Positions 1 through 24,167 of a stretch of 64,000 bases of DNA are shown in pieces. The first letter of the stretch is position 1. Every line of letters begins with the position of its first letter. The position numbers and the translations under genes were made by a program. The notes below the pieces were generated by a model. That model did not search any database. It was not told the DNA's origin and saw only the letters and a program-made list of their open reading frames with translations. This stretch comes from Candidatus Fibrimonadaceae bacterium (GTDB taxonomy: Bacteria; Fibrobacterota; Fibrobacteria; Fibrobacterales; Fibrobacteraceae): contig JAITFN010000076.1 in the NCBI GenBank assembly GCA_031281345.1, forward strand, positions 5,725 to 69,724. Reading direction: 5' to 3'.

Positions 1-143
1 CGGAAATCAATAAGCTTGATGCCCATGCTAGGTACATATACAACGACTTTGAAAAAGTATATTACAACGAAGGCGATAAGATAGGCATGTATAGTGTCCG
101 CTGCCTGCAAGACCCCGCCCCACCCAAAGGAGAAGCAAAATGA
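1..143 (+). CDS. FISUMP-domain protein, C-terminal end only (5' part lies left of the window)
   Basis: Frame 3 reads ...GMYSVRCLQDPAPPKGEAK with stop TGA at 141-143. It has the same SVRCLQD end and PAPPKGEAK tail as 8220-8837. The stop overlaps the next start codon (ATGA). Confidence 0.8.
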   Translation, partial: EINKLDAHARYIYNDFEKVYYNEGDKIGMYSVRCLQDPAPPKGEAK

Positions 144-1309
144 ATAGAACCATCTTTTGCATTATAATCTGCTGCTTTTGCATATTCACGTGCAAATCCA
201 AGGAGACAGAGAAGCCCAAGGAGCCAGAGAAGCCCAAAGAAGAAATAAAAAAGATAGGCAACATAGACAAGCCTTTGAATTTGTCTTTGCACTTTAGCGG
301 ACCAGGGATAGCAATTTCTTCTAAAACTATTGACGGCAATATAATTGATACTTTGAACTATCCATATTCCATTCATATAGATAACGATAGCATAATGATT
401 TTCACTGTCTGGGCAGAAGAAAGGGTAGCAAAAGATAAGGAATATAGAGGCAAACTAACAGATGAGCAACATTTGAAAATTAAAACTATGGTTTCTGCTT
501 TAAACCAGGAATATGAAAAGAGTAAAGTCGTTATATTTGATGCCATGACTTGTATATTAAAAATTGATAATAAAGTTCATTATGAACAGAAAGCCTGTGA
601 GGATAATCCTGAATTTTCAATTGACCGTTTTCCACCAATGCCAAAAGAAATATTGCTTTTATTTCAATATATTGTAGATTTACCTCCCGTCAGAATAATG
701 AGACACCGTCAATATACCCCTCCCACCATTGCGCATCAAAAAGGTACCTTCACTGATACACGAGATGGCAAAGTCTATAAAACCACAAAAATCGGCGAGC
801 AGGTTTGGATGGCGGAGAATTTGAATTATGAGGCGAGTGGTTCAAGGTGCTATAATGATAGCACAGCATATTGCGATAAGTATGGGAAGTTATATAATTT
901 GGAAACGGCTATTAAGGCTTGTCCAAATGGTTGGCATTTGCCGAGCAGGGATGAGTGGGAGGTATTGACGAAAACGATTGGCGAGAGAACAGCATGCAAG
1001 TATCTTAAATCTACTAGCGGTTGGGACAAAAGTTACGGCGAAGATTCTGGCAATGGCGATGATAAGTACGGCTTTTCCGCCCTGCCTGGCGGCTATCGCT
1101 GGTTGAATGGCAGTTTCAGCAAGGTCGGCCGCTTCGGTGGCTGGTGGAGTGCCACCAAGTCCAGAAATCCTGAATATCCAGGCAACGTGGTCATCAGGAT
1201 TGAGGAATACATGAACGGTGCCACCAGCGACTACCCATACGAGAAGGACTTTTTGTTCAGTGTTCGTTGTGTGCAGGGTTCCGCCCCACCCAAAGGAGAG
1301 GCAAAATGA
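140..1309 (+). CDS. Lipoprotein: MNRT-type N-terminal domain (family B) plus C-terminal FISUMP domain
   Basis: 389-aa ORF with lipobox signal peptide MNRTIFCIIICCFCIFTC. The N-domain (DKPLNLSLHF, YPYSI, LTDEQ-LKIK-MVSALNQEYE) is shared with 5908, 8834 and the middle of 19946. The C-terminus reads GTFTDTRDGKVYKTTKIGEQVWMAENLNY...GWHLPS...FSALPGG...FSVRCVQG. AGGAG lies 7 nt upstream, inside the preceding ORF. Confidence 0.85.
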   Translation: MNRTIFCIIICCFCIFTCKSKETEKPKEPEKPKEEIKKIGNIDKPLNLSLHFSGPGIAISSKTIDGNIIDTLNYPYSIHIDNDSIMIFTVWAEERVAKDKEYRGKLTDEQHLKIKTMVSALNQEYEKSKVVIFDAMTCILKIDNKVHYEQKACEDNPEFSIDRFPPMPKEILLLFQYIVDLPPVRIMRHRQYTPPTIAHQKGTFTDTRDGKVYKTTKIGEQVWMAENLNYEASGSRCYNDSTAYCDKYGKLYNLETAIKACPNGWHLPSRDEWEVLTKTIGERTACKYLKSTSGWDKSYGEDSGNGDDKYGFSALPGGYRWLNGSFSKVGRFGGWWSATKSRNPEYPGNVVIRIEEYMNGATSDYPYEKDFLFSVRCVQGSAPPKGEAK

Positions 1310-1322
1310 CAAGCTACGGCGT

Positions 1323-2423
1323 TCAAAGTTTGGCAGGATTTTTCCTCATTTTCGCAATAATATCTTCCATAATTTTTTCAAATTCCTTTACATTCGGTAG
1401 TTTTCCTGATTTTATGGAAATTTCATCGTAAGCTCTACTATCTTCACCGTAAAAGATATAGAACATTCCACTTGTGCCGTAACCCACACCACCATCATCC
1501 AGTCGTTTTGGGACTCGTTCCCATTTATCAAGACAACAGGTGTATAAAGCCCTTATAAAATCCAGCCATTCCTCTATATTCAATTTAACGTTAATATTCT
1601 CTTTATCTAGCCCCTTCTCCTTTGGCTCTTTTCCGTGATACTCTGCTAGTGCGCCGTATAACGTTCTGTTTATTTCTAAATCATCTTTATTTTTAAATTC
1701 ATCTCCGTTCCAAAAAAAAGTTATCTTTTTAATTTTAATCTCAAAATCGCTCATCGGTTCTCCAAATCTTTTTTCGTATTTCGTTTTCAATTTAGTTAGA
1801 AACTCCGATTTATCTCCTTTTTCAATTTCAAATCTATGTTCTAAAAGATCCAAACTTCTTTGATTAAAATATATAAGTAATTTCCTCAAGCCGCCATCTG
1901 TATCTAAATTGTTATCTGATATTGTTTTTAACTGTTTTTTCAAGCCTCTGTTTAGATATTCCTTATAGTCTATACTTGTTTCTTTGATAAGTTTTCCTTT
2001 TTCAAAATGGAGAACAGAATAATATTTGTGCAAACTGTATCTGCCGTCTCTTTTATCTAAAGGCTCACCTTTACTTATGACTATTGAATCGGTGAACCAG
2101 CTCAATTTGAATATTGAATCTTTTGCAGCAAAGGTGGATAGAAATCCTTTCAATAGACTTTCAGAGCAGTTTCCAATATCTTTCAATATCAATTCATTAC
2201 CAACTATTTCAAATCCTGCATAGTATCCCTTCGCTAATGCTGTACAAAATCCTTCCCCTTTCCATTCCCATTTATTCGCTTTGTCCAGATAAGAATATAA
2301 AATAACATCATCTAATGAATATCCCTTGCCCTTGTATATAAGATAATCTGGAATTTGCTCGGTTGCATAAGACTTAACTGGTGCAAAAAACGCAAAGATG
2401 ATTATTAGGCAGAGGGAGCGCAT
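1323..2423 (-). CDS. Secreted protein of unknown function, paralog family C
   Basis: ORF 1323-2453. The internal ATG at 2423 gives signal peptide MRSLCLIIIFAFFAPVKSYA. Full-length paralogs are at 3378-4412 and 22454-23548 (YATEQIPDY-IYKGK, HFEKGKL-KET, GDKSEFLTKLKTKYEK-FG, TCCLDKWE). No catalytic family recognised. Confidence 0.75.
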   Translation of the reverse strand: MRSLCLIIIFAFFAPVKSYATEQIPDYLIYKGKGYSLDDVILYSYLDKANKWEWKGEGFCTALAKGYYAGFEIVGNELILKDIGNCSESLLKGFLSTFAAKDSIFKLSWFTDSIVISKGEPLDKRDGRYSLHKYYSVLHFEKGKLIKETSIDYKEYLNRGLKKQLKTISDNNLDTDGGLRKLLIYFNQRSLDLLEHRFEIEKGDKSEFLTKLKTKYEKRFGEPMSDFEIKIKKITFFWNGDEFKNKDDLEINRTLYGALAEYHGKEPKEKGLDKENINVKLNIEEWLDFIRALYTCCLDKWERVPKRLDDGGVGYGTSGMFYIFYGEDSRAYDEISIKSGKLPNVKEFEKIMEDIIAKMRKNPAKL

Positions 2424-2443
2424 TGTAGAAAATATATAAAATT

Positions 2444-2489
2444 CTGCCTGCAAGACACCCCCACCCCACCCAAAGGAGAGGCAAAATGA
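2444..2489 (+). pseudogene. Orphan 3' tail of a FISUMP gene (CLQDTPPPHPKGEAK, stop) including the SD-ATGA junction
   Basis: ctgcctgcaagacacccccaccccacccaaaggagaggcaaaATGA matches the last ~45 nt of 8220-8837 and 140-1309. No FISUMP body precedes it; it abuts the promoter spacer of 1323-2423. Confidence 0.55.
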
Positions 2490-2524
2490 TAAAATGTTGC
2501 ATAATTTCCTATATTAACAAATAT

Positions 2525-3304
2525 ATGCAATTTATTAGAGCCGTGCTGATTTTACTTATGCTGTGGTCGCTATGCTTCTCAGAAGCCCCAGGTCTCAACC
2601 ACTCTCCAACAAATTTTCCCGAAATAACATTCAAAATACAAGAAGTTATTGGTTCTTATTCAGAGAAAAAAATTGAGGCTATTGTGGATTCTAATATGTT
2701 AGGTTTACGCAGCGTTTACTATAAATATATAGATAGAGGGCAGGACATTGAAGGTGATATTTTGTTAAAATTTACAATCACTGCAAACGGCAAAGCATCC
2801 AATATTGACATATTATCCAGCACAACAGGAAATGCTGAATTTGATGAAGCCATTAAGAACAAAGCAGCCATTTGGAAATGGGAAACCACAAGGGGCGACA
2901 AACCTACATCAGTAACTCTTCTTTTTAGGTTCGTAATCCTTCATTCAAGCAGTCTATATTTTATTTTAAGTAGCCCATACCCACCTGAAAAGGTTCATTG
3001 GATTATGAATACTGGTTTTAATATGAATACTCGTATCCTTGCTTACTTGTGGAATGTTTACGTTGCTTTTCATAAATCAAAACCAGATCTTAAAGGCAAG
3101 ATAATTCTTAAATATACAATCTCAGATAGCGGAGAAGTTATTAAAGTTGATATAGTGGCTAGCACAACGGAATGGCCTCCATTTGACGAAGCCATTAAGA
3201 ACAAATTCGCCTCTAGCAAAAAATGGAAATTAAAAGACGAAAAAGAAAATTATAAAAGCGGCAATACTACGTTTATGAGGGAGTTTACTTATAAATGGGA
3301 ATGA
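2525..3304 (+). CDS. Secreted protein with two TonB C-terminal-like modules (paralog family D)
   Basis: ORF 2486-3304. The ATG at 2525 gives signal peptide MQFIRAVLILLMLWSLCFS. There are two modules of the type EGDILLKFTITANGKASNIDILSSTTGNAEFDEAIKNKAAIWKWE, which resembles the TonB_C pattern (G-V-V-F-I---G-V--V-V--S-G---D-AA--AV--W-F). Paralog at 19158-19949. Confidence 0.55.
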   Translation: MQFIRAVLILLMLWSLCFSEAPGLNHSPTNFPEITFKIQEVIGSYSEKKIEAIVDSNMLGLRSVYYKYIDRGQDIEGDILLKFTITANGKASNIDILSSTTGNAEFDEAIKNKAAIWKWETTRGDKPTSVTLLFRFVILHSSSLYFILSSPYPPEKVHWIMNTGFNMNTRILAYLWNVYVAFHKSKPDLKGKIILKYTISDSGEVIKVDIVASTTEWPPFDEAIKNKFASSKKWKLKDEKENYKSGNTTFMREFTYKWE

Positions 3305-3381
3305 TCCTCCTTATCCTCTGCACCGCTCTCTTTGCCCAGCAAAAAAGCACATTTACCGATACGCAAAGCTACGGCGTTTAA
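3301..3381 (+). pseudogene. Truncated 5' head of a FISUMP gene (signal peptide plus QQKSTFTDT only)
   Basis: The ATG overlaps the stop of 2525-3304 (ATGA). It encodes MILLILCTALFAQQKSTFTDTQSYGV, then stops. FISUMP homology ends at gatacgc and is replaced by AAGCTACGGCGTT, the 3' flank of family C gene 3378-4412. Confidence 0.6.
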
Positions 3382-4412
3382 GGCTTGGCAGAATTTTTCC
3401 CAATTTTCGCAATAATATCTTCCCAAACTTTTTCAAATTCATTTACATTCGGTAGCTGCCCTGATTTGATGGGAAATTCATAATGTTCATCGTAAGGGCG
3501 ATTTTTGCTGGAAGAATAAATATAGAACATTCCACCAAGTTCACTAGGATAACGACCTACCTGTTCTGCTACTAATTCCCATTTATCAAGACAACAGGTT
3601 GATAAAGCCCTTATAATATCCAGCCATTCTTCCATGCTCAACTTAGTTACAGTTCCAATTTTACTAAAATCAACTACTCGCGCACCGTATAGAGTTCTGG
3701 TTATTTCAAAGCTATATTCGTTCCCCAAACGTATCCTTTGAATTTTAAGTTCAAAATCGCTTATCGGTCTCCCAAATTTTTTTTCGTATTTCGTTTTCAA
3801 TTTAGTTAGAAACTCCGATTTATCACCTTTTTGTGTTTCCAGATAATGTTCTATTATTTCTAAATCAGCTTGATACTGATTTTCAGATAATTTTCTAAGG
3901 AGTTCTATTGAAGATATTTTTAAATGCCATTTCAATCTGTTGCTTAAATATTCCTTATAACTCATACGGGTTTCTTTAACGAGTTTTCCTTTTTCAAAAT
4001 GAAGAATGGAATAATATTCGTGTACGTCATCATACAAATATCTACCTTCTGCTATGACTATTGAATCTGTGAACCAGTCAAACTTGAATATTGAATCTTT
4101 TGCCGCAAAAGTGGATAGAAACTCTTTCAATAAGCTCTTAGAGCAGTTTCTAACATCTTTTAATCTCAACTCATTACCAACTATTTCATATGTCGCATAG
4201 TAATCTCTCGCTAGAGCTGTACACCAAAATCCATTTTTTCCTCCTGCCCATTCCCATTTATTCGCTTCTTTCAGATAAGGGTATAAAGGGCTATATTCCA
4301 ATGCATATTGTTTACCTTTATATATAAAATAATCTGGAATTTGCTCGGTTGCATAAGACTTAATCTGTGCAAAAAACGCAAAGAGGATTATTATTAGGGA
4401 GAGGTAGCGCAT
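3378..4412 (-). CDS. Secreted protein of unknown function, paralog family C
   Basis: ORF 3378-4484. The internal ATG at 4412 gives signal peptide MRYLSLIIILFAFFAQIKSYA. Collinear with 1323-2423 and 22454-23548. Confidence 0.75.
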   Translation of the reverse strand: MRYLSLIIILFAFFAQIKSYATEQIPDYFIYKGKQYALEYSPLYPYLKEANKWEWAGGKNGFWCTALARDYYATYEIVGNELRLKDVRNCSKSLLKEFLSTFAAKDSIFKFDWFTDSIVIAEGRYLYDDVHEYYSILHFEKGKLVKETRMSYKEYLSNRLKWHLKISSIELLRKLSENQYQADLEIIEHYLETQKGDKSEFLTKLKTKYEKKFGRPISDFELKIQRIRLGNEYSFEITRTLYGARVVDFSKIGTVTKLSMEEWLDIIRALSTCCLDKWELVAEQVGRYPSELGGMFYIYSSSKNRPYDEHYEFPIKSGQLPNVNEFEKVWEDIIAKIGKNSAKP

Positions 4413-4447
4413 TGTAGAAAATGTAGAAATTCCTATATTAAAAGAAG
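4413..4447. promoter_or_regulatory. 35-bp divergent spacer carrying conserved TAGAAA / TTCCTATATTA boxes (putative bidirectional promoter)
   Basis: tgtagaaaatgtagaaattcctatattaaaagaag lies between two divergent ATGs. Near-identical spacers occur at 17463-17498 and 23549-23582, with a partial copy at 2424-2443. Confidence 0.4.
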
Positions 4448-5911
4448 ATGAACAAAACCGCCACACTCCTTCTTGCCTGCACACTGCTCTGCGTTATTGC
4501 TTGCGGACAGAAAAATGAACAGGAAAAAGGCACCTTCACCGACACGAGAGACGGTAAAGAATACAAAACCGTAAAAATCGGCGAGCAGGTTTGGATGGCG
4601 GAGAATTTGAATTACGAGGTTGAAAATGGTCTATGCTATGGAGAAAATGGAAAGGTTGAGAAACATATAATTATAGGCGAGACTACGTTATCAGATAAAG
4701 AAATTCAGGATAACTGCAATGAATATGGGCGGCTTTACGATTGGGAAACTGCTATGGAAGTTTGTCCAGATGGTTGGCATTTGCCAAGCGATGAAGAGTG
4801 GATTAATTTATATAGCTATGTGGGTGGTGGCGAAACAGCGGGTAAATACTTGAAGTCAAAGAGTGGCTGGATTAACGAGTTTATACTTTATCCTTTCAAA
4901 TCCATAATGACTATATTACTGGCTCCACTACTAGCAGACAGTTTCAGAGAAATTCTTGATTTTTTTAAAGTCATTTTTAGTGAGTTTTTGAAATTCAGTA
5001 ATGGCAAGGATACTTTCAGTTTTAATGCATTGCCAAGTGGCTACGCTAGCGATAGTGGTTTTGGTTACTATAGATTTAACGGTGTTTACAGAAGTGCGTA
5101 TTGGTGGACTAGTTCTTTGAAGAATGTTGAGGATGGAGAGGATGCCTACTATCACAGAATGTATAGCAACGAAGAAGATGCTAGCAATAGCTATACTGGT
5201 AAAGGTTATTTCTATTCTGTCCGTTGCTTGCAGGGCACATCCACCGGAACAAAGGAACCTCCAAATGACCCTATGTGCGCGAATATACGGGCAGACTTTG
5301 CCCAGCAAAAAGGCACATTCACCGATACACGAGACAGCAAGGAATATGGAATAGTAAAAATTGGCGAACAGGTTTGGATGGCAGAGAATTTGAATTACAA
5401 GGTGAAAGGTAGTAAATGCTATAGCAACAAATCTGCCAACTGTTGCGAATATGGCAGGTTATATAATTGGAAAACGGCTATGACAGTTTGCCCGAGTGGT
5501 TGGCATTTGCCTAGCAATGCGGAGTGGGATATTTTATACCGCCACGTGGAAGATGGCAAAAGCGGTAAGAACACTCCTTATGCAAATTATAGCGAAACGG
5601 CAGGCAAGTTTTTAAAAGCTACGAGTGGCTGGAAAGATTACGAAGAAAAATCTGGCAACGGCAATGATAAGTTCGGATTTTCCGCTCTGCCAGGCGGCTA
5701 CGGTCATTCAGATAGCAAATTTCGCGATGTTGGCTACGAAGGTGGTTGGTGGAGTTCTAGTGAGGATGAGCGAGAGAATTACTTCGCCTACTGCCATGTT
5801 ATATACTACAATGGTGGGAAAGCCAACTCCGCTAAGATGTTTAAAAACATCTTGTACAGTGTCCGTTGCATACAAGACACCCCCGCCCCACCCAAAGGAA
5901 CAGCCAAATGA
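4448..5911 (+). CDS. Lipoprotein with two FISUMP domains
   Basis: 487 aa with lipobox MNKTATLLLACTLLCVIAC. There are two complete GTFTDTRD...SVRC(L/I)Q(G/D) units. The first carries a 43-aa hydrophobic in-frame insertion (4871-4999). The tail TPAPPKGTAK overlaps the next ATG. Confidence 0.85.
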   Translation: MNKTATLLLACTLLCVIACGQKNEQEKGTFTDTRDGKEYKTVKIGEQVWMAENLNYEVENGLCYGENGKVEKHIIIGETTLSDKEIQDNCNEYGRLYDWETAMEVCPDGWHLPSDEEWINLYSYVGGGETAGKYLKSKSGWINEFILYPFKSIMTILLAPLLADSFREILDFFKVIFSEFLKFSNGKDTFSFNALPSGYASDSGFGYYRFNGVYRSAYWWTSSLKNVEDGEDAYYHRMYSNEEDASNSYTGKGYFYSVRCLQGTSTGTKEPPNDPMCANIRADFAQQKGTFTDTRDSKEYGIVKIGEQVWMAENLNYKVKGSKCYSNKSANCCEYGRLYNWKTAMTVCPSGWHLPSNAEWDILYRHVEDGKSGKNTPYANYSETAGKFLKATSGWKDYEEKSGNGNDKFGFSALPGGYGHSDSKFRDVGYEGGWWSSSEDERENYFAYCHVIYYNGGKANSAKMFKNILYSVRCIQDTPAPPKGTAK

Positions 5912-7014
5912 ATAGAACTATCTTTTGCATTGTAATCTGCTGCTTTTGCATATTCACGTGCAAATCCAAAGAGACGGAGAAGCCCAAAGAAGAAATAGAC
6001 AACATAGACAAGCCTTTGAATTTGTCTTTGCACTTTAACGGACCAGGGGTATCAGTGTCTTATGACACTATTGACGGTAATGTAATTAAGACTTTAAATA
6101 GTCCATATTCCATTAATATTGTTAACGATAGCATAATGATTTTAGTTGGATGGATAGATGGAGATGAGGAATACAGAGATAAACTAACAGATGAGCAATA
6201 TTTGAAAATTAAAAATATGGTTTCTGCTTTAAATCAGGAATATGAATCTCTCTATAAGCGGAGATATCCGTATGACTACCGGACTTGTGTATTAAAAATT
6301 GATAATCAAGTTCGTTATGAACATGGGGGCTGTGCGAGTAATCCTGAATTTACAATTCCCAATTTTTCACCCATGCCAAAAGAAATATTGCTTTTATTTC
6401 GGTATATTGTAGATTTATCTTCCATTAGAATAATGAAACCCATTACAACCATCGCACATCAAAAAGGCACATTCAACGATAAGCGAGACGGTAAAACATA
6501 CAAAACCACAAAAATAGGCGAACAAGTTTGGCTGGCGGAAAATTTGAATTATGAAATGAAAAGTTTCTTTGGACTTTTCACTATAGGCAACAAATGCTAT
6601 GACAACAAACCTGCCAACTGCAATAAATACGGGAGATTATATAATTGGAAAACGGCAATGAAGGCTTGTCCAGAGGGTTGGCATTTGCCTAGCAGGGCAG
6701 AGTGGGAAGTATTGACGAAAGCGATTGGCGGCATAGAAATAGCAGGCAAGTACCTTAAATCTACTAGCGGTTGGGATTATTACGAAGGAAAATCTGGCAA
6801 TGGCGAGGATAAGTATGATTTTTCCGCCCTACCTAGCGGCTTTGGCAAATCTAATGGCGATTTCGGCAGTGGTGGCAGCAACGGCAGTTGGTGGAGTACT
6901 ACCGAGTACAGTGATGGCCACGCTGGTCTCTGGATTGTAGAATACATGGAGATTGCCAACTACCTACCATACGATAAGGACTTTTGGATCAGTGTTCGTT
7001 GCCTGCAAGACTAA
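5908..7014 (+). CDS. Lipoprotein: family B N-domain plus FISUMP domain
   Basis: ORF 5866-7014. The ATG at 5908 (ATGA overlap with the upstream stop) gives MNRTIFCIVICCFCIFTC. Collinear with 140-1309. Ends ISVRCLQD without the PPKGEAK tail. Confidence 0.85.
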   Translation: MNRTIFCIVICCFCIFTCKSKETEKPKEEIDNIDKPLNLSLHFNGPGVSVSYDTIDGNVIKTLNSPYSINIVNDSIMILVGWIDGDEEYRDKLTDEQYLKIKNMVSALNQEYESLYKRRYPYDYRTCVLKIDNQVRYEHGGCASNPEFTIPNFSPMPKEILLLFRYIVDLSSIRIMKPITTIAHQKGTFNDKRDGKTYKTTKIGEQVWLAENLNYEMKSFFGLFTIGNKCYDNKPANCNKYGRLYNWKTAMKACPEGWHLPSRAEWEVLTKAIGGIEIAGKYLKSTSGWDYYEGKSGNGEDKYDFSALPSGFGKSNGDFGSGGSNGSWWSTTEYSDGHAGLWIVEYMEIANYLPYDKDFWISVRCLQD

Positions 7015-7045: not shown

Positions 7046-7258
7046 ATGAGCTTTATAGGAACCATAGTGATAAAAGAAGAGGAAGACTGGTTTGTAGCCA
7101 CTTGCTTGGAAAATGATATTGCTTCACAGGGGAAAACAATAAACGAAGCAATAGACAACTTAAAAGAAACAATAGCTTTGTATTATGAAGACGAAGAAGA
7201 TGTTAGCATAGCTAAAAGCAAGCAAGTTTATGTAACCACTTTGGAAATGGCTATATAA
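7046..7258 (+). CDS. hicB: HicB-like antitoxin (UPF0150 fold)
   Basis: 70 aa: MSFIGTIVIKEEEDWFVATCLENDIASQGKTINEAIDNLKETIALYYEDEE. This is the typical HicB N-domain pattern (W-A-CPEL-G--SQG-T-EEA--N-KEAI-L). TTCTATATT box lies 7 nt upstream of the ATG. Confidence 0.7.
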   Translation: MSFIGTIVIKEEEDWFVATCLENDIASQGKTINEAIDNLKETIALYYEDEEDVSIAKSKQVYVTTLEMAI

Positions 7259-17462: not shown

Positions 17463-17498
17463 AAAGAAAAATATAGAATTTTCCTATATTAAAAGAAA
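17463..17498. promoter_or_regulatory. 36-bp divergent spacer with TTCCTATATTA box
   Basis: aaagaaaaatatagaattttcctatattaaaagaaa lies between divergent ATGs. Homologous to 4413-4447 and 23549-23582. Confidence 0.35.
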
Positions 17499-18572
17499 AT
17501 GAACAAAATCGCAATAATTGCTACAATCACTCTATTAGCCTTGCTTTTGCTGATAGGGTGCGCTAATCGAAGCAATGCAACAAAAAATGCAGATTTACCC
17601 GTATCGGAGCAAGACAATGATATTTGGACTGCGTTTTATGGTGATAGTAATTTAATTAATTTAATTGGCTATAAAGACAAAAAGGGAAATATAAAAATCG
17701 AGCTAAAGTTTTTACGTACTTCTTCGGATGAGTTTGACAAGATTATTGCCGTTGAAGAATATGATGGAGAGAGGAAGAATTACTTTCTCACAAAGGAAGG
17801 GAGAGTATTTGGCATAGACAGCGTATATTTTTTCGATAACGTTATTCACCACCAATGTGAAGGTTTCTTTAATTTTATTGACCGCAAAACATACTTTATA
17901 GGAATGTTTGATAGGAATGGAAATGTAGTTATTCCTGCTGATTATAACTATTTGGATATTGTGAAAAACGGAATGTTATTGGCACTCAAAGGTGCAAAAA
18001 AAGAGTGTTTGGATGAATATTGTGAACATAATGAATTTGTTGGCGGAAAAGTAATGCTTATTGACACATTGAACAACGTTTTGATAGAAAATTTCAGTGA
18101 GCGGGACGACAGCGGTAAATATCTGGGAGATCTCGATTTTTTCTCAGTTGAAAAGAGCAAAGTGCCCCATTCAGATACAACTAGAGTATCTTATTTAGCG
18201 AAAGATGGGAGTTATTATTCATTTACTATCTTTGAAAGAGAATTTAAACAATGGTTGCTCAATGATTTGCTTGCAAACTTAACTCTCGAAAAACTTATAG
18301 ATGCCTCAAATGATACTATTAAGCAATTTATAACTGACAATTTTGAACTCTTGAAAAAAGAATTATCATTGATATTAAATTCAGACACCAAATATTCTAT
18401 TTTTGTTGAATATCCATTTAACCCTTGCGGTAATATTTCTCCCAACATAAAACTACGGATTTCTCATAAAGATAGCGGAGAACAGAATTACTTTGAATTT
18501 TCACGAATCAATAGCAGGTACAAATTAACTGATGTAGGAATCAGAACTGCTCCTTATCTGAAGTTAGAATGA
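17499..18572 (+). CDS. Lipoprotein, WG-repeat-like (paralog family F)
   Basis: 357 aa starting MNKIAIIATITLLALLLLIGC. Collinear with 13093-14049 and near-identical over GMFDRNGNVVIPADYNYL and FFSVEKSKVPHSDTTR-SYLAKDGSYYSFT. Confidence 0.6.
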   Translation: MNKIAIIATITLLALLLLIGCANRSNATKNADLPVSEQDNDIWTAFYGDSNLINLIGYKDKKGNIKIELKFLRTSSDEFDKIIAVEEYDGERKNYFLTKEGRVFGIDSVYFFDNVIHHQCEGFFNFIDRKTYFIGMFDRNGNVVIPADYNYLDIVKNGMLLALKGAKKECLDEYCEHNEFVGGKVMLIDTLNNVLIENFSERDDSGKYLGDLDFFSVEKSKVPHSDTTRVSYLAKDGSYYSFTIFEREFKQWLLNDLLANLTLEKLIDASNDTIKQFITDNFELLKKELSLILNSDTKYSIFVEYPFNPCGNISPNIKLRISHKDSGEQNYFEFSRINSRYKLTDVGIRTAPYLKLE

Positions 18573-18593
18573 AGAAAATTCTATATTACAATA

Positions 18594-19133
18594 ATGAATA
18601 TTGTTAAGGCTATACTATTTTTTTTATTGGTTTCCCATAAATTATATGCGGCAGGCAAAGATTCTGTTTTTGTGTCAGTGAAAGAAACAGATTCTTCGTA
18701 TATATATACTTTGTATCATCGAACAAATAATTCTTTGAAAAAAATATACGAAATCAATGCGGAAGATGAAAGTTCAATTGATTACGAATATCATTACAAA
18801 GATAGCGTTCTTGATTATGATTGTTTTTCTTTGTACAATAACGCTTGTGCTTGCAATCAATATATATTTTTTGATAGACGAACAAAAATTTTTTACATTA
18901 CAAAAAATTTCTTTGAAGGATTTCACATAGAAAAACAAAGTGTAAATTTTAAAGATAAAACGTTGATTTTATATAGTAATGAAAATGCAAAAAATATAAT
19001 CAATGTTTCTTCTTTAGGTGGAGACATTTTTCAAGATTATGCTTCTATTGGAAAGAGAGTGCTGGAAAAAATTTTTATATTTCCCATAGGACAAAAAAGG
19101 TCAGAAAGTATTTTCATTCATCAAAAAGAATAA
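18594..19133 (+). CDS. Secreted hypothetical protein
   Basis: 179 aa with signal peptide MNIVKAILFFLLVSHKLYA. TTCTATATT box lies 6 nt upstream of the ATG. No paralog in the window. Confidence 0.5.
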   Translation: MNIVKAILFFLLVSHKLYAAGKDSVFVSVKETDSSYIYTLYHRTNNSLKKIYEINAEDESSIDYEYHYKDSVLDYDCFSLYNNACACNQYIFFDRRTKIFYITKNFFEGFHIEKQSVNFKDKTLILYSNENAKNIINVSSLGGDIFQDYASIGKRVLEKIFIFPIGQKRSESIFIHQKE

Positions 19134-19157
19134 ATTTAAATTCTATATTAAAAGAAG

Positions 19158-19949
19158 ATGAACAAAACCGCAATAATCGCCGCAATTTTGCTTATACTGC
19201 CTTCGTTATGTTTTTCAACGATGGGTAGTCATTTTAAGGATTATGAACTAAGAGTATTTCCTAAAACAACATTTGAAATACAAGAAGCGACAAGTTCTTA
19301 TTCAAAAAAAGAAATTGAGGCTATTGTAGATAGTGGTATGTTAGGTTTAAGAAGCATTTACCTTAAACATTTGATGAATTTGAATTTTGAAGGCAATGTT
19401 TTACTTAAAGTCACAATCGCAAAAAGTGGCAAGGTTATTGATGTTGATATAATGAGTAGTTCAACAGAAAATACCAAATTTGATGAAGCGGTTAAGAATA
19501 AAGTAGCTGCTTGGAAATGGAATGTTAAAAATGATAGTGCCACAGTGACAATTCTCTATAAATTCGCAACCATTCCTCCAACAAATAAAGCAGGAACAAG
19601 AGCGTTTCTTATAAATGGAGTACGACCGTTCAATGATATTTTCTCAAATTTAAATCGTCACTCATCAGGATTAGCAAAAATTCAAAATAAGTATTTAAAG
19701 CTAAAACCTGATTTAGATGATAGGATTATTGTTATATTCAAATTTGAAGTTGCCAAAAGTGGTTACGTGACTGATGTTGATATAGTTGCCAGCACAGCAG
19801 AATATGCCGAATTTGAAGAAGCAATTAAGAGCTTCGTAGCCACTTGGAAATTTAAACCTATTGAAAATGGCAATACCACGGTTTCAATTTTTCTCACATT
19901 TTATAAGCCAGAGCCAAATTCTAGTTCGAGCGGTGGTCAAACAGAATGA
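19158..19949 (+). CDS. Secreted protein with two TonB C-terminal-like modules (paralog family D)
   Basis: 263 aa starting MNKTAIIAAILLILPSLCFS. Modules read EGNVLLKVTIAKSGKVIDVDIMSSSTENTKFDEAVKNKVAAWKW and IIVIFKFEVAKSGYVTDVDIVASTAEYAEFEEAIKSFVATWKFKP. The stop overlaps the next ATG (ATGA). Confidence 0.55.
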   Translation: MNKTAIIAAILLILPSLCFSTMGSHFKDYELRVFPKTTFEIQEATSSYSKKEIEAIVDSGMLGLRSIYLKHLMNLNFEGNVLLKVTIAKSGKVIDVDIMSSSTENTKFDEAVKNKVAAWKWNVKNDSATVTILYKFATIPPTNKAGTRAFLINGVRPFNDIFSNLNRHSSGLAKIQNKYLKLKPDLDDRIIVIFKFEVAKSGYVTDVDIVASTAEYAEFEEAIKSFVATWKFKPIENGNTTVSIFLTFYKPEPNSSSSGGQTE

Positions 19950-21562
19950 GCAAAATCGCAACATTCCTTCTCCTCTGCACATTGCTCTGCGTTGTTGCTT
20001 GCGAACCGAAATACGAACCGCAAATAGGCACATTCACCGACCAACGCGATAACAAAACCTACAAAACCGTAAAAATCGGCGAGCAGGTTTGGATGGCAGA
20101 GAATTTGAATTATGAGGCGGAAGGCAGCAGATGTTACAACGATAGTACAGCCTACTGCGATAAATACGGTAGGTTGTATGCCTGGGAAACTGCTATGAAG
20201 GCTTGTCCGGATGGTTGGCATTTGCCGAGCGATGCTGAGTGGAAAATATTGATTGCAACGGTTGGCAATGCAGAAACAGCTGGCAAGTCTCTTAAAGCGG
20301 TTAACGGGTGGAAAGAAAATGGCAACGGCAAGGATAAGTTCGGCTTTTCGGCTCTGCCTGGCGGCAGCGGTTCCGATGGCGGTTTCGACTCTGTTGGCTA
20401 CTACGGCTACTGGTGGAGTACTATTGAGTACTCTAGCTACTTCGCCTACTACCGAGATATGGTTTACTACTTCAATTACCACGATCAGAACTACCTATAT
20501 AGTGTCCGCTGCATACAAGACAAGCCTTTTAATATTTCTTTGCTCTTTCGCGATCCAGCAGGGATAAGAGTGTCTTTAGACACTATTAATGGCAATGTAA
20601 TTGAGACTTTACTGTATCCATATTCCATTGATATAGTTAACGATAGCATAATATTCACTGCTCGAAAATGGCGTGGGAATAAGGAATATAGGGGCAAGCT
20701 TACAGACGAGCAACAGTTGAAAATTAAAAATATGGTTTCTGCATTAAATCAGGAATATGAATTTCCCTCATTGGATGATGATGATGGACCGGGGTTAGGT
20801 CCTTGGGCTTGCATATTAGAAATTGATAATCAGGTTCGTTATATACGGGGAGGCTGTGAGGATAATCCTGAATTTACACATATTCGTTTTAAGGAAAAAA
20901 TGCCAGAAGAAATACGGGTTTTATTTAGGTATATTATAGATTTATCTCCCATTGTTCCAATGGGATTCCAAAACAGCCGAAAGAGAAAAGACTCTGGCAC
21001 AACCATCGCACATCAAAAAGACACATTCACCGACAAGCGAGACGGCAAAACATACAAAACCACAAAAATAGGCAAGCTGGTTTGGATGGCGGAGAATTTG
21101 AATTATGAGCTTGGCGGTTCTAAATGCTACGCGGAAGAACCTAAAAACTGCAAAAAATACGGGAGATTATATAATTGGAAAACGGCAAAGGAGGCTTGTC
21201 CAGAGGGTTGGCATTTGCCTAGCAAGGAAGAGTGGCAGAAATTAATTAAAGCGGTTGGCGATGAAAAAACAGCAGGCAAGTATCTTAAAGCTAAGAGTGG
21301 CTGGGATGATGTTTACGAAGGAAAGTTTGGCAACGGCGATGATAAGTATGGCTTTTCCGCCCTGCCGGGCGGCTTTGGCTCGTCTGATGATAATTTCTCC
21401 GTTTTCGCCGGTTATGGCAACAACGGCAGTTGGTGGACTGCCACAGAACACAAGGCTTCATACGCCTACTTACGAAACATTTACAACGACAGCGACTATG
21501 TGAACAGCAAATACAAAGATAAGACGTTCCTATTATCCGTGCGTTGTGTGCAGGACGATTAG
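19946..21562 (+). CDS. Fusion lipoprotein: FISUMP domain, family B N-domain, FISUMP domain
   Basis: 538 aa with lipobox MSKIATFLLLCTLLCVVAC. The first FISUMP domain ends YSVRCIQD and runs directly into KPFNISLLFRDPAGIRVSLDTINGNVIETLLYPYSIDIVNDSIIFT. That is the family B domain minus its own signal peptide and minus the PPKGEAK/ATGA junction. A second FISUMP domain follows. Confidence 0.85.
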   Translation: MSKIATFLLLCTLLCVVACEPKYEPQIGTFTDQRDNKTYKTVKIGEQVWMAENLNYEAEGSRCYNDSTAYCDKYGRLYAWETAMKACPDGWHLPSDAEWKILIATVGNAETAGKSLKAVNGWKENGNGKDKFGFSALPGGSGSDGGFDSVGYYGYWWSTIEYSSYFAYYRDMVYYFNYHDQNYLYSVRCIQDKPFNISLLFRDPAGIRVSLDTINGNVIETLLYPYSIDIVNDSIIFTARKWRGNKEYRGKLTDEQQLKIKNMVSALNQEYEFPSLDDDDGPGLGPWACILEIDNQVRYIRGGCEDNPEFTHIRFKEKMPEEIRVLFRYIIDLSPIVPMGFQNSRKRKDSGTTIAHQKDTFTDKRDGKTYKTTKIGKLVWMAENLNYELGGSKCYAEEPKNCKKYGRLYNWKTAKEACPEGWHLPSKEEWQKLIKAVGDEKTAGKYLKAKSGWDDVYEGKFGNGDDKYGFSALPGGFGSSDDNFSVFAGYGNNGSWWTATEHKASYAYLRNIYNDSDYVNSKYKDKTFLLSVRCVQDD

Positions 21563-21566
21563 CGAA

Positions 21567-22055
21567 ATGCTCACACCCAAACTCACCGCCGCCCTTGCTT
21601 GCACACTGCTCTGCACCGCCCTCTTTGCCCAGCAAAAAGCACCTTACGAAGCTACGTGGTTACTGATTCAAAAAGCAGGCAATAGCTATGTGGTATACAA
21701 TTATCCAAGTCTGTGGAACGATGGAAAAACAAAAAAACCTGTAACGATGAAGATACAAAGAAATCAAATGACTAGGATAACATATAGTGATGATATTAAT
21801 GTTATGACTCTTTCGTCTGATAAAATAGAGAAAAAAGATAATGACGTTTATTTTTTTCGAGTAGGAAATTGTTTTTCATTCAAATTAATAGATGAAAAAA
21901 AGCATATTGCCGAATGGACAAACTATTTTGGATGCAAAAATGCACTCTCTGGCAAATTATATATCGGCGAACTATATATTGACAGTTTGTACAATACTTT
22001 TCCTATTGTTGACTATGAATGGAAAGAAGAACCGATAGATAGCGAAGCGGATTAA
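21567..22055 (+). CDS. Secreted protein of unknown function, paralog family G
   Basis: ORF 21546-22055. The ATG at 21567 gives MLTPKLTAALACTLLCTALFAQQ. Paralog of 7407-7886. Confidence 0.7.
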   Translation: MLTPKLTAALACTLLCTALFAQQKAPYEATWLLIQKAGNSYVVYNYPSLWNDGKTKKPVTMKIQRNQMTRITYSDDINVMTLSSDKIEKKDNDVYFFRVGNCFSFKLIDEKKHIAEWTNYFGCKNALSGKLYIGELYIDSLYNTFPIVDYEWKEEPIDSEAD

Positions 22056-22059
22056 TGCT

Positions 22060-22095
22060 TCATATATGTTATTGTTGTCAATATGAGACAGATTT
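22060..22095 (+). pseudogene. Remnant (last ~32 nt plus flank) of the small membrane-protein gene
   Basis: tcatatatgttattgttgtcaatatgagacagatt matches 8165-8199, the end of 7870-8196. The rest of that gene is absent here. Confidence 0.5.
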
Positions 22096-22111
22096 TTCTA
22101 CCTTGCAATAA

Positions 22112-22477
22112 ATGAACAAAACCGCAACAATCGCCGCAATTATTCTGCTTATGCTGCCGCTCTTGTGTTACGGTAAGGACAACAAAATTAATTTAGAAAC
22201 TAGTGATTCTTCTTATAATGAACTGGTAAAGAAATTTAAAGCAAAAATGAAAGCAAAACCAGAGCCTTTGTTTTGGAAGGAAGATGCTGAACTTAAAGCA
22301 ATGTATGAAACTGTTGATGAGGCAGAAAGAAAAAAACTGGATGATGCATATAATAAAGCGGTATCTGAAATTGCCAGAGAAAGATATAAAGAAGAACTTG
22401 AAACAAAATATGAGAAAAAAGGCACCTACCGACACGCGAGACGGCAAAGAAAATTAAGGTATGACTATGTCAAATGA
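22112..22477 (+). CDS. Secreted charged/coiled-coil protein whose 3' end reads into an out-of-frame FISUMP 5' fragment
   Basis: 121 aa starting MNKTATIAAIILLMLPLLCYG, with a K/E-rich mature part. Nucleotides 22415-22451 (aaaaaaggcacctaccgacacgcgagacggcaaagaa) match the KGTFTDTRDGKE motif with a 2-nt deletion. Confidence 0.5.
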   Translation: MNKTATIAAIILLMLPLLCYGKDNKINLETSDSSYNELVKKFKAKMKAKPEPLFWKEDAELKAMYETVDEAERKKLDDAYNKAVSEIARERYKEELETKYEKKGTYRHARRQRKLRYDYVK

Positions 22478-23548
22478 CCTACTCTTTTGAATTAGAATCA
22501 AATCGTCAGTGGAGTCCACTTTCTCAATAATATTTTCCATAACTTTTTCAAATTTCTTCAAATTCGATAATTGTCCTGATTTGATGGGAAATTCATAACG
22601 TTCATCGTAAGCACTGCCTTTGCTGGAAGAATAAATATAGAACACTCCACCCACTTCACTAGGGGAATAACGACCTATCTGTCTTGGTACTCGTTCCCAT
22701 TTATCAAGACAACAAATAGATAAAGCCCTTATAAAATCCAGCCATTCTTCTATATTCAATCTAACTTCAACCAGGGAGTTTTGATTTTCGATAAACTTTG
22801 TTCGCGCACCGTATAGCGTTCTTGTTATTTCAAGTTCATATCCGTCTTTAAATTTTATCCTTTGAATTTTAAATTCAAAATCGCTCATAGGTTTCCCAAA
22901 TTTCTTTTTGTATTTCGTTTTCAATTCAGTTAGAAACTCAGATTTATCTCCTTTTTTTGTTTCCAGATAATGTTCTATGATTTCTAAACTAGTTTCATAA
23001 TCATTTTCAGATATATTTCCGAAGAACATTCCTGAATAATCATCCTCGCTTGACGAAATTTTTAACCAAGCCCGTTTATCCAATCTGATATTTAGATGTT
23101 CCTTGTAATCCATACGGGTTTCTTTTATAAATTTCCCTTTTTCAAAATGAAGAATGGAATAATATTCGTGTACATAACCATACAAGGGTTTACCCTCAGC
23201 TATGACTATTGAGTCTGTGAACAAGTCCAATTTGAATATTGAATCTTTTACATCAAAAGCAGATAGAAATTCTTTCAATAAGCTCTTAGAGCAGTTTCTA
23301 ACATCTTTTAATCTCAACTCATTACCAACTATTTCAAATTTTGCATAGTATCCTCCCGCTAATGCTGAACACCAATCATTTGTATCTCTCCATTCCTTTT
23401 TTGCTTTTTTTAGATAAGGATATAAAAGGTTACCCAATGGATATTGTTTGCCATTGTATATAAGATAACTTGGAATTTGCTCGGTTGCATAAGACTTAAT
23501 CTGTGCAAAAAACGCAAAGAGGATTATCACCAAGCAGAAGGAACGCAT
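22454..23548 (-). CDS. Secreted protein of unknown function, paralog family C
   Basis: 364 aa with signal peptide MRSFCLVIILFAFFAQIKSYA. Collinear with 1323-2423 and 3378-4412, but its C-terminal ~25 aa differ. Confidence 0.75.
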   Translation of the reverse strand: MRSFCLVIILFAFFAQIKSYATEQIPSYLIYNGKQYPLGNLLYPYLKKAKKEWRDTNDWCSALAGGYYAKFEIVGNELRLKDVRNCSKSLLKEFLSAFDVKDSIFKLDLFTDSIVIAEGKPLYGYVHEYYSILHFEKGKFIKETRMDYKEHLNIRLDKRAWLKISSSEDDYSGMFFGNISENDYETSLEIIEHYLETKKGDKSEFLTELKTKYKKKFGKPMSDFEFKIQRIKFKDGYELEITRTLYGARTKFIENQNSLVEVRLNIEEWLDFIRALSICCLDKWERVPRQIGRYSPSEVGGVFYIYSSSKGSAYDERYEFPIKSGQLSNLKKFEKVMENIIEKVDSTDDLILIQKSRSFDIVIP

Positions 23549-23582
23549 GGTAGAAATTTAGAAAATTCTATATTAAAAGAAA
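23549..23582. promoter_or_regulatory. 34-bp divergent spacer with TAGAAA / TTCTATATTA boxes
   Basis: ggtagaaatttagaaaattctatattaaaagaaa lies between divergent ATGs. Confidence 0.35.
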
Positions 23583-24167
23583 ATGAACAAAACCGCAACA
23601 TTCCTTCTCCTCTGCACAACCCTCTTTGCCCAGCAAAAAGGCACCTTCACCGATACACGAGATGGCAAAATATACAAAACCGTAAAAATCGGCGAACAGG
23701 TTTGGATGGCGGAGAATTTGAATTATGAGACGAGTGGTTCAAAATGTTATGACAACAAACCTGCCAACTGCAAAAAGTACGGACGGTTGTATAATTGGAA
23801 TACGGCTATGAAGGTTTGCTCAAATGGTTGGCATTTGCCGAGCAATGCTGAATGGGAAGTATTGATGGAAACGACTGGCGGTTATAAAACAGCAGGCAAG
23901 TTCCTTAAAGCGGTTAGTGGGTGGAAGGATTACGAAGGAAAATCTGGCAACGGCGAGGATAAGTTCGGTTTTTACGCCCTGCCTGGCGGCGACTGCAATC
24001 AGAATGATTATTTCAACCATATCGGCAATTTCGGCTACTGGTGGAGTTCCAGCGAAAGCAACAGCAACGATGCCTACTTCAGGAGTATGGGCGACATCGA
24101 CGATCGCGTATACTGCATCATCAGTGATAAGGGCGACTTATTCAGTGTCCGCTGCCTGCAAGATTAA
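23583..24167 (+). CDS. Single-domain FISUMP protein (secreted)
   Basis: 194 aa starting MNKTATFLLLCTTLFAQQKGTFTDTRDGKIYKTVKIGEQVWMAENLNY. Ends FSVRCLQD. Confidence 0.85.
   Translation: MNKTATFLLLCTTLFAQQKGTFTDTRDGKIYKTVKIGEQVWMAENLNYETSGSKCYDNKPANCKKYGRLYNWNTAMKVCSNGWHLPSNAEWEVLMETTGGYKTAGKFLKAVSGWKDYEGKSGNGEDKFGFYALPGGDCNQNDYFNHIGNFGYWWSSSESNSNDAYFRSMGDIDDRVYCIISDKGDLFSVRCLQD

Follow-up and report, generated by a model that had tools for sequence, protein, structure and literature searches.

The 64,000-nt stretch of DNA analysed here (the window) belongs to a contig of a metagenome-assembled genome (MAG) of a termite-gut bacterium of the family Fibromonadaceae, phylum Fibrobacterota. Its left part, from position 1 to approximately 27,535, contains a dense array of genes for predicted exported proteins built of binding-type modules, and we consider it rather probable that this segment is the right-hand part of a lineage-variable genomic island that carries the array as its cargo. 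This degree of belief applies jointly to the island, its cargo, the copying of gene modules, their remodelling by ordinary recombination, and the use of the products as a binding repertoire. The array was inventoried from a listing of open reading frames (ORFs) and their translations, scans with Pfam and NCBIfam models, and tblastn comparisons of all genes with the window. The genes are located on both strands, all copies of one family share the same (direct) orientation, and neighbouring genes are spaced by −24 to 92 nt, with the exception of a few larger gaps. The GC content of this segment is 0.35–0.42, similar to that of the backbone. Genes are referred to by their family and start coordinate, and the positions are listed in Table 1.

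Eleven FISUMP domains are distributed among nine genes of the array. Ten of the domains, in eight genes, were identified by PF09603 and TIGR02145 (ORFs 140, 4448 with two domains, 5866/5908, 8220, 8834, 14039/14054, 19946 with two domains, and 23583), and the eleventh, in a gene of which the window edge leaves only the 3′ end, was found by tblastn. The PF09603 scores are 87–216 bits, relative to a cut-off of 33.9, and the TIGR02145 score is 175 bits, relative to a cut-off of 41.65. The N-termini, as read from the translations, have signal or lipoprotein sequences such as MNKTATLLLLCTTLFAQQK and ...VIAC/G. The cysteines of the CY and SVRC motifs are invariant in the ten aligned array domains, and two additional cysteine positions (xC..YG and aCP.GWHLP) are present in nearly all of them; conserved cysteines in this family are suggestive of extracytoplasmic disulfides. 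Fibrobacteres genomes contain 17–119 copies of TIGR02145, with 70–119 in Fibromonadaceae, and related genomes have ~116 FISUMP copies per 3.2 Mb (PMC4704652). About one FISUMP gene per 24 kb is predicted from these published numbers, compared with the nine that we observe. Three more FISUMP genes are located outside the 24 kb that a sequence-only reading of this DNA had covered, at 32559–34613, 40340–42220, and 56084–56830.

The FISUMP genes are interleaved with genes of six partner families. The family B N-domain, which forms a lipoprotein with an MNRTIF... signal, occurs four times (in 140, 5908, 8834, and inside 19946), and family C comprises three minus-strand genes (1323, 3378, and 22454) with 56–68% amino acid (aa) identity; both were traced by tblastn. 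Two family D genes (2486/2525 and 19158) encode two TonB_C-like domains each, with PF03544 scores of 40 and 54 bits (cut-off 24.6) and an NF033768 (AgmX/PglI C-terminal domain) score of 92 bits (cut-off 40). The two family D genes and their neighbours are the lowest-GC stretches of the array (18001–20000 and 2001–4000, with values of 0.31 and 0.35 vs ~0.40). Three GLUG genes carry four modules: one in 10589, two in 14626, and one in a frameshifted copy at 12096–13045; the PF07581 scores of the first two genes are 63 and 66 bits and that of the frameshifted copy is 23 bits, relative to a cut-off of 20.5. WG_beta_rep (PF14903) was detected in the lipoproteins 13093 and 17499 with 35.6 and 26.4 bits (cut-off 25.6), and two family G genes, 7407 and 21567, were identified by tblastn. 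Families B, C, and G were not matched by any Pfam or NCBIfam model. The small DUF7387 protein encoded at 7052 we take to be antitoxin-like; no partner gene was seen beside it.

The sequence-only reading had counted the same numbers of domains and genes in all seven families, as well as one fusion (FISUMP-B-FISUMP at 19946) and one frameshifted copy, the GLUG gene at 12096–13045, whose C-terminal piece is in another frame and which, if the frameshift does not stem from faulty sequencing, is a pseudogene. It had also counted at least six orphan fragments; tblastn restricted to the gaps, reading of the gene junctions, and comparison with intact relatives revealed at least eight gene stubs.

The families are organized into recurrent two-gene modules. 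Family C on the minus strand diverges from FISUMP on the plus strand twice, with intergenic gaps of 26 and 34 nt, and family D is followed by an ATGA-coupled FISUMP twice, one of the two FISUMPs being the 26-codon stub at 3301–3381. The arrangement of a FISUMP gene followed by an ATGA-coupled B+FISUMP gene occurs three times, as previously proposed; the proposal that the first partner is a short FISUMP does not hold for 4448, which is a double-domain gene. A 24-nt connector, CCNCCNAAAGGAGNNNCNAAATGA, is present in six copies in the window, where none is expected, and also in seven related loci. It encodes a PPKGEAK tail, holds a Shine-Dalgarno (SD) sequence, and ends in an ATGA stop/start overlap. 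Together, these properties would couple two same-strand genes translationally.

A palindromic motif, AATATAGAATTTTCTA with the core TAGAAATTTCTA, occurs 20 times in the window with up to three mismatches, compared with 2.9 expected occurrences. It is mostly positioned 10–30 nt upstream of start codons, in the array and among the housekeeping genes alike, and often between divergent genes. The motif is probably a lineage-specific bidirectional promoter or operator element. A scan for consensus promoters and terminators gave counts equal to those in shuffled sequence, and Rfam models had no matches in the window.

The modules are also found outside the array. The divergent C-FISUMP pair exists as a lone unit among housekeeping genes in two other lineages (L001–L005 and L009; L numbers denote loci from other genomes), and its intergenic region of 26–50 nt can be aligned across paralogs and species, among which it is conserved. 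TonB_C followed by FISUMP, FISUMP followed by B, and minus-strand GLUG genes are also present in L010, L011, and L018. The array would have grown by the copying of small modules that other genomes carry singly: the divergent C-FISUMP pair with its palindromic control region of 26–35 nt, and the gene pairs in which B(+FISUMP) comes after FISUMP, FISUMP after D, and a small membrane protein after G.

Homologs of families C and B are restricted in number, with 24 and 18, respectively, in a word-indexed search of 5.8 billion proteins, and those with names belong to Fibromonadaceae/Fibromonadales MAGs. Arrays with the same mixture of families are present in L007 and in the L010 group, where FISUMP, B, C, TonB_C with FISUMP after it, opposite-strand GLUG, a G-like gene, toxin-antitoxin (TA) genes, and Rpn fragments are accompanied by many FISUMP 5′ stubs. 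The gene order in these arrays is not collinear with that of the window. At least ten window genes are closer to a gene in a small sample of foreign loci than to any paralog in the array, including C1323 (94% vs 71%), FIS23583 (87% vs 80%), and G7407 (93%). Therefore, most of the duplications predate the split of these lineages.

A homologous array from a related population was recovered from six samples, with an identical B+FISUMP protein in a core that is 99.8–99.9% identical. The core has three right-hand continuations: type I was recovered from four independent samples, and types II and III come from a single sample apiece. In one contig the left flank differs as well. Each breakpoint adjoins or interrupts a FISUMP gene, or coincides with the end of a gene. 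A gene or fragment of the Rpn family is located both at the edge of the window array (24493–25338) and just past a variant breakpoint of the homologous array (L011 9906–10271), which could be a coincidence or a mechanistic link. A FISUMP gene of L010 (12698–12787) differs from that of L018 (8219–8266) by a 42-nt in-frame indel (241 vs 255 aa) in contigs that are otherwise 99.9–100% identical; this is small-scale repeat variation within a population.

The right border of the array is occupied by a tyrosine integrase gene, which is followed by the housekeeping genes GT1, endonuclease III, MurB, CoaE, PGM, aconitase, and GyrB. A scan for GT1 in species-representative genomes gave four loci. One of them, L015 (GCA_031281275.1), from a sister species, is collinear with window positions 27535–34593 at ~86% nucleotide (nt) identity. 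Upstream of GT1, L015 has SurA-like, acyltransferase, and fatty-acid-synthase-like genes, and no integrase, Rpn-like gene, or array is present there. In turn, window positions 25743–27550 are matched at 98.3% identity in L032, where the segment abuts a RecD2-like helicase and not GT1. Because the syntenic site in L015 and the context in L032 differ from the window, the segment to the left of ~27,535 is lineage-variable and the integrase end is found in different contexts. Homologs of the integrase form 74 clusters, and those with a source name all come from Fibromonadales or Fibrobacteria. An integrase at the border, combined with absence of the array from the syntenic site of a sister species, is what is expected of a genomic island, and the array may have arrived as one. 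The absence in L015 also speaks against a static locus, the outcome that the sequence-only reading had set against its own proposal. The 16 nt at 27535–27550 that are common to the window, L015, and L032 were considered as an att core and rejected, as they are a copy of the promoter-like palindrome described above.

The same border could have been produced if an integrative element, such as an island or a remnant of an integrative and conjugative element (ICE), had moved the array as a block among Fibromonadaceae; the paralogy would then have arisen elsewhere, and the local structure would say little of recombination in place. The integrase, the flush junction with the backbone at 27535, the 98% identical integrase segment in another context, the distribution of the 74 integrase clusters, and the TA stubs inside the array are compatible with such passive transport. 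We nevertheless regard it as unlikely, because Pfam scans of the first 27.5 kb detected no genes for conjugation or replication and none of phage type, even the best-matching phage integrases have no more than ~25% identity, the GC content equals that of the backbone, and the array and the housekeeping genes use the same promoter-like palindrome. Furthermore, pS (synonymous divergence) relative to L007 ranges from 0.05 to 0.19 among the genes, which argues for a piecemeal rather than a block history, and the left end of the presumed element lies outside the window.

Within the array, recombination has left several kinds of traces. In windowed comparisons, paralog pairs mostly have pS of 0.2–0.6, and their nt identity is mostly 55–80%. 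GLUG10589 and GLUG12269 differ by pS of only 0.04–0.07 in the first ~120 codons and by 0.5–0.9 thereafter, and the central tract of the WG pair has pS of 0.05–0.07, compared with 0.25–0.36 elsewhere. A permutation test of the longest identical run gave P ≤ 0.001 for the GLUG pair, both C pairs, and the G pair. The FISUMP domains are mosaic: the N-half of the domain in 140 is nearest to that in 8834 (86% vs 75% to 5908), its C-part is nearest to that in 5908 (74% vs 62% to 8834), and the nearest neighbour switches between the halves in nine of the ten domains. C1323 differs from the family C gene of L009 by pS of 0.12, relative to 0.32–0.39 for four backbone genes of the same genome pair, and the high-identity tract stops exactly at the cassette borders. 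By this measure, the C1323 cassette appears to be ~3 times younger than the genome backbone and to have been exchanged between lineages. A Campbell-type insertion of the cassette between two connectors was considered and rejected, as a simple internal deletion of the FISUMP partner is more economical. The truncated gene 22112 and C22454 converge and overlap by 24 nt, and the 322-aa L007 protein to which the truncated gene corresponds (L007 11905–12873) ends in a family C domain; the overlap (window 22420–22510) may be what remains of an inversion or deletion that involved inverted family C domains.

These traces bear on whether the locus is instead an ancient and static cluster of paralogs, produced by old duplications and inherited stably, in which the apparent mosaicism would reflect uneven constraint along the genes. 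The pS values of the paralogs, the many genes that are closer to genes of other genomes than to array paralogs, the conservation of modules across species, and the four-domain FISUMP at 32559, which is syntenic and 84% identical in the sister species, all fit stable inheritance. We consider such a history improbable, as it does not account for the roughly ten-fold drop in synonymous divergence in the GLUG 5′ tract, the young C1323 cassette, or the at least eight stubs, one fusion, and one frameshift. Nor does it explain the absence of the array at the syntenic site in L015, the scrambling of gene order relative to L010, and the three structural variants of the homologous array. Ordinary recombination between repeats would remodel the array, and the outcomes observed are stub-leaving deletions, an in-frame fusion, partial gene conversion, mosaic FISUMPs, and replacement of single cassettes from other lineages.

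FISUMP proteins have been proposed to participate in extracytoplasmic substrate binding or to be a "cohesin analogue" (PMC3625147, PMC4704652). Fib_succ_major/DUF1566 proteins are CLec2 targets of diversity-generating retroelements (DGRs) and are C-type-lectin-like; the variable region is C-terminal and, in LdtA, surface-exposed (PMC5758913). Sequence searches for a solved structure of FISUMP found none. In the alignment of the ten array domains, the N-half (KGTFTD...GWHLPS) has a mean aa identity of 75% and a ratio of non-synonymous to synonymous divergence (pN/pS) of 0.29. The following WWS..SVRC segment has 21% identity and a pN/pS of 0.65, and the final SVRCLQD strand has 83% identity and a pN/pS of 0.20. 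The paralogs therefore differ where homologous proteins bind their ligands, which suggests a germline repertoire of binding specificities. If all of the genes were expressed and their products exported to the cell surface, the array would most likely provide many germline-encoded extracytoplasmic ligand-binding specificities; plant fibre or a glycan is the usual guess for the ligand in this phylum.

A profile search with family C gave 1,806 representative clusters and enabled the division of the family into two separable domains (profile positions ~1–195 and 195–346). The domains occur alone, in two to four tandem copies, or fused to FISUMP (P0155, P0156), FGE-sulfatase (P0188), or MORN repeats (P0210), and no Pfam model covers them in the family C proteins scanned (P0117–P0259). 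Since FISUMP and FGE-sulfatase, to which the distant family C domains are fused, both have a lectin fold, the fusions support a functional partnership between family C and FISUMP. Family C is an undescribed domain superfamily linked to lectin-fold proteins. Searches of the PDB by sequence and profile gave only spurious matches (caspase-6 with an E-value of ~0.7, and polyubiquitin matched to a low-complexity K/E linker), and an hhalign comparison of the B N-domain with family C detected no relationship.

The array is directly bordered by genes for an integrase and an Rpn-like protein, which raises the question of programmed variation, in which one or both of the encoded proteins would shuffle, invert, or exchange cassettes at the connectors or 5′ ends and thereby switch surface proteins, much as in an integron, a shufflon, or a silent-cassette system. 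Such a system would also be in line with the Rpn fragment just past the type II breakpoint of the homologous array (L011), the six standardised 24-nt connectors with their counterparts in other genomes, the strongly conserved 5′ ends, and the integrase homologs in L033 that stand beside a GLUG gene and Abi/TA genes. Against these observations, the integrase scores 29 bits relative to an integron-integrase cut-off of 265, the intergenic gaps leave no room for attC-like sites, and family copies are all direct, with no notable inverted repeats near the integrase or among the array genes. Furthermore, full copies are complete, the stubs (≤30 codons) are too short to be donor cassettes, and 55–80% nt identity is low for frequent homologous conversion. 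Hence we hold programmed variation to be quite unlikely. A still bolder and very doubtful idea is that the connector and the palindromic divergent-promoter unit are standardised joints of an undescribed system, in which "lectin cassettes" of one or two genes would be mobilised, both inside a genome and from one genome to another, by the integrase, the Rpn-like nuclease, or both. If true, the exchange would be integron-like in function, with translationally coupled cassettes and no attC, and termite-gut Fibrobacterota would have at their disposal a combinatorial repertoire of binding proteins that is shared horizontally.

The description of the array in the sequence-only reading as actively recombining rather than static is thus borne out in part. 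Conversion tracts, mosaic FISUMPs, stubs, the fusion, the frameshift, the young C cassette, the absence in L015, and the variants of the homologous array speak for recombination. A programmed or currently active variation system is not supported: the paralogs are mostly old, the full copies are complete genes in direct orientation within each family, and no integron integrase, no reverse transcriptase (RT) among the ORFs scanned against Pfam, no near-identical template/variable repeat (TR/VR) pair, and no inverted-repeat switch was found. The data are indicative of duplication, deletion, conversion, and lateral replacement of the ordinary kind, acting over evolutionary time, rather than of a dedicated switching mechanism. 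An assembly artefact, in which a chimera or a collapsed or expanded repeat had produced the stubs, fusion, and frameshift as errors, is suggested by the MAG origin of the contig, the possible sequencing error in the GLUG gene, and the difficulty of assembling repeated families, but is highly improbable because the paralogs are at most 92% identical over 300 nt and mostly 55–80%, a divergence too great for k-mers to collapse, independent assemblies from other samples and assemblers contain these same families, modules, connectors, and stubs, and the two sides of the integrase/GT1 junction are independently backed by L032 and L015, which share only a 16-nt motif.

Several points weigh against an island that carries a recombining repertoire of binding proteins. 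The signal peptides and lipoboxes were assigned by visual inspection of the translated sequences. The window contains no tRNA gene, and no flanking direct repeat or GC deviation in it marks the segment as an island; with the left end located outside the window, a rearrangement breakpoint at 27,535 is an alternative to insertion. Most of the paralog pairs are old and the rate of turnover may be low. The conserved 5′ ends could be due to embedded promoters or signal-peptide constraint instead of conversion, an explanation that the low pS of the GLUG tract disfavours for the GLUG pair alone. Searches for proteins identical to those of the window, and a scan of metagenomes for the WG protein, found no copy of the locus, so ongoing change is extrapolated from the scars and from the homologous array in another population. 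The variant contigs of that array are short-read metagenome assemblies, in which variants from a single sample may be chimeric joins. Neither of the two AlphaFold2 models, that of family C (pLDDT 75) or that of the B N-domain (pLDDT 70), had a meaningful fold match in the PDB (Foldseek E-value >0.02, TM-score ~0.1).

The remaining part of the window contains three features that are separate from the array. A low-GC block at 42000–46000 (0.32–0.34) encodes an 8xMP membrane protein, a SieB-like superinfection-exclusion protein, a TPR protein, and a PIN toxin, and may be a second small variable or defence-related islet. A 2,237-aa SprA-like protein of the type IX secretion system (T9SS) translocon is encoded on the minus strand at 49225–55938; therefore, the lineage has a T9SS. 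The array proteins are without an obvious T9SS C-terminal domain. In L015, an extra two-domain FISUMP (14848–16062) is located between orf263 and the four-domain FISUMP, and is missing from the window (~32570). FISUMP gain or loss therefore also occurs within the otherwise collinear backbone.

Table 1 Features of the array, its right border, and the adjacent backbone (positions in the window)
Position	Strand	Feature	Evidence
1–143	+	FISUMP gene 3′ end, cut by the window edge, with PAPPKGEAK tail and SD-ATGA connector	tblastn (match 3–143), motif
140–1309	+	Family B N-domain + FISUMP lipoprotein	PF09603, TIGR02145, B alignment
1323–2432	-	Family C secreted protein; cassette 94% nt identical to L009 (other species), pS 0.12	tblastn
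2445–2489	+	Orphan FISUMP tail stub (CLQDTPTPPKGEAK, stop) with connector ahead of gene D	gap tblastn, junction reading, motif
2486–3304	+	Family D, secreted, two TonB_C-like domains; likely start 2525	PF03544; paralog 19158
3301–3381	+	FISUMP 5′ stub, 26 codons, ATGA-coupled	gap tblastn, junction reading
3378–4421	-	Family C; divergent partner of FISUMP 4448	tblastn
4422–4447	.	C-FISUMP divergent intergenic region, 26 nt, palindromic TAGAAATTTCTA-type motif; conserved in paralogs and other species	alignment, motif statistics
4448–5911	+	Lipoprotein, two FISUMP domains	Pfam
5908–7014	+	Family B + FISUMP, ATGA-coupled to the 4448 gene	Pfam, tblastn, motif
7052–7258	+	DUF7387 small protein	Pfam
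7407–7886	+	Family G secreted protein, 93% nt identity to L010	tblastn
7870–8196	+	108-aa hydrophobic, presumed membrane protein; overlaps the end of G	translation
8220–8837	+	Single-domain FISUMP	Pfam
8834–10018	+	Family B + FISUMP, ATGA-coupled	Pfam, motif
10015–10095	+	FISUMP 5′ stub, 26 codons, ATGA-coupled	junction reading
10589–11737	-	GLUG-repeat secreted protein; first ~400 nt a putative recent conversion tract common with the 12269 copy	Pfam, windowed pS
11740–11826	-	RelE toxin stub, 29 of 112 codons	comparison with intact gene
11816–12022	-	68-aa antitoxin-like gene, 97% aa identity to the L007 copy (there beside an intact RelE)	comparison with L007
12054–12110	+	Family G 5′ (signal-peptide) stub	gap tblastn
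12096–13045	-	GLUG pseudogene: N-terminal 258 codons (12269–13045) and out-of-frame C-terminal piece (12096–12320)	Pfam, tblastn
13093–14049	+	WG-repeat lipoprotein	Pfam
14054–14635	+	Single-domain FISUMP	Pfam
14626–17073	-	Lipoprotein, two GLUG modules	Pfam, tblastn
17076–17462	-	128-aa secreted protein, singleton	translation
17499–18572	+	WG-repeat lipoprotein; central ~300 nt 92% identical to the 13093 copy	Pfam, paralog comparison
18594–19133	+	179-aa secreted protein, singleton; 92% nt identity to L001/L005	comparison with related loci
19158–19949	+	Family D, two TonB_C / AgmX-PglI C-terminal-like domains	Pfam, NCBIfam
19946–21562	+	FISUMP-B-FISUMP in-frame fusion; tail, stop codon, and B signal peptide lost	Pfam, tblastn, alignment
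21567–22055	+	Family G	tblastn
22059–22088	+	Stub: final 10 codons, 100% identical, of the gene for the 108-aa membrane protein downstream of G7407	comparison
22112–22477	+	Truncated gene: first 103 aa of a 322-aa L007 protein, 98% nt identity	comparison with L007
22454–23548	-	Family C, aberrant last 20 aa; divergent partner of FISUMP 23583	tblastn, alignment
23583–24167	+	Single-domain FISUMP	Pfam
24493–25338	-	Rpn/YhgA-like PD-(D/E)XK nuclease ("putative transposase"); match below NCBIfam cut-off	Pfam, NCBIfam
26129–27337	-	Fibromonadales-specific tyrosine integrase, right end of the variable segment	Pfam, NCBIfam, homolog search
27535–27550	.	Junction: L015 backbone homology begins at 27535; L032 integrase-segment homology stops at 27550	alignments
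32559–34613	-	Four-domain FISUMP not belonging to the array; sister-species counterpart is syntenic with 84% aa identity; stable contrast copy	Pfam, synteny
42205–42918		8xMP membrane protein in the low-GC block	
43233–43757		SieB-like superinfection-exclusion protein in the low-GC block	
43732–44919		TPR protein with internal 102-nt tandem repeats in the low-GC block	
45070–45486		PIN toxin in the low-GC block	
4420–4439, 17470–17485, 18572–18587, 23555–23574, 27535–27554, 40101–40120, 46055–46074, 57430–57445, 57573–57588		Palindromic motif sites	

FISUMP is the most expanded gene family of Fibrobacterota and is very abundant in the guts of wood-feeding termites, and its function is still a guess. 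The locus shows that FISUMP copies are held in conserved two-gene modules with dedicated partner families, that the modules are shuffled and apparently exchanged between lineages, and that the diversity of FISUMP is concentrated on the very surface at which DGRs introduce mutations into related proteins. It thereby offers concrete targets for binding assays and for the study of how a symbiont that degrades fibre adjusts its repertoire of surface or periplasmic binding proteins.

The array shares individual properties with several known systems of gene variation. As in chromosomal integrons such as the Vibrio superintegron, a tyrosine recombinase is located at one end of a long series of small, frequently paralogous genes, many of which encode signal peptides, with TA remnants in between and a content that differs among strains. 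In contrast to integrons, the integrase is positioned at the 3′ side of the array and is not divergent from it. Membership was rejected on scores of 29.3 bits vs 265 for TIGR02249 and 17 bits vs 435 for NF011946, and attC sites on the short gaps, the many ATGA overlaps, the use of both strands, and the lack of structured repeats between the genes. Bacteroides shufflons and multiple-inversion loci similarly combine an adjacent tyrosine recombinase with exported paralogs that have conserved 5′ ends, in a bacterium of the FCB group. Here, however, the orientation within families is direct, no inverted-repeat crossover sites were found, and each gene pair has its own promoter-like motif; a shufflon or invertible promoter was rejected, as only weak short inverted repeats exist near the integrase and among the array genes. 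A silent-cassette system of the vls/pilS type was rejected because every full copy has a start codon and a signal sequence, the stubs have at most 30 codons, and the identity is mostly 55–80% nt. Phage origin was rejected since even the nearest integrases of phages reach only ~25% identity and the phage collection contains no family C.

The vsp/vlp genes of Mycoplasma and the lipoprotein paralogs of Borrelia are clustered families that evolve by duplication and gene conversion. The array resembles them in its conserved signal-peptide/5′ regions, divergent mature parts, putative conversion tracts, pseudogenes, and fragments. It differs from them in that there is no sign of on/off switches (invertible promoters or homopolymer tracts), the amplification involves several unrelated families that are multiplied jointly as modules, and the host is a fibre-degrading insect-gut symbiont, not a pathogen facing adaptive immunity.

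The CLec2 proteins diversified by DGRs (Legionella LdtA; DUF1566/Fib_succ_major) belong to the same superfamily as FISUMP, are exported or lipoproteins, and likewise have a diverse C-terminal segment (here 21% identity vs 75% in the N-half) (PMC5758913). The window differs in that it has no template repeat, no adenine-directed mutation pattern, and no RT among the ORFs scanned against Pfam, and the diversity is spread over many germline paralogs instead of being generated in one gene. The hypervariable C-terminal segment of FISUMP corresponds to the CLec-fold target of a DGR, which is a resemblance and not membership; a DGR was rejected, as no RT was found among the window ORFs scanned against Pfam and there is no near-identical 100–150-nt repeat pair of the TR/VR type.

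The closest known counterpart is the FISUMP family of Fibrobacter succinogenes and other Fibrobacteres, with which the array shares the domain, at scores far above the cut-offs, the signal or lipoprotein N-termini, and the conserved cysteines. The array is the expected kind of thing for the phylum, and it reveals no new molecular mechanism. High FISUMP paralogy was known beforehand, and copy numbers are published; a description of the local organization of FISUMP genes was not found in the literature searched. Here, the copies are approximately ten-fold denser than the genome average, are intermixed, in conserved two-gene modules, with six partner families that were amplified along with them, and bear recombination scars. 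This modular organization, the partner families, and the focusing of diversity on the DGR-equivalent segment are new.

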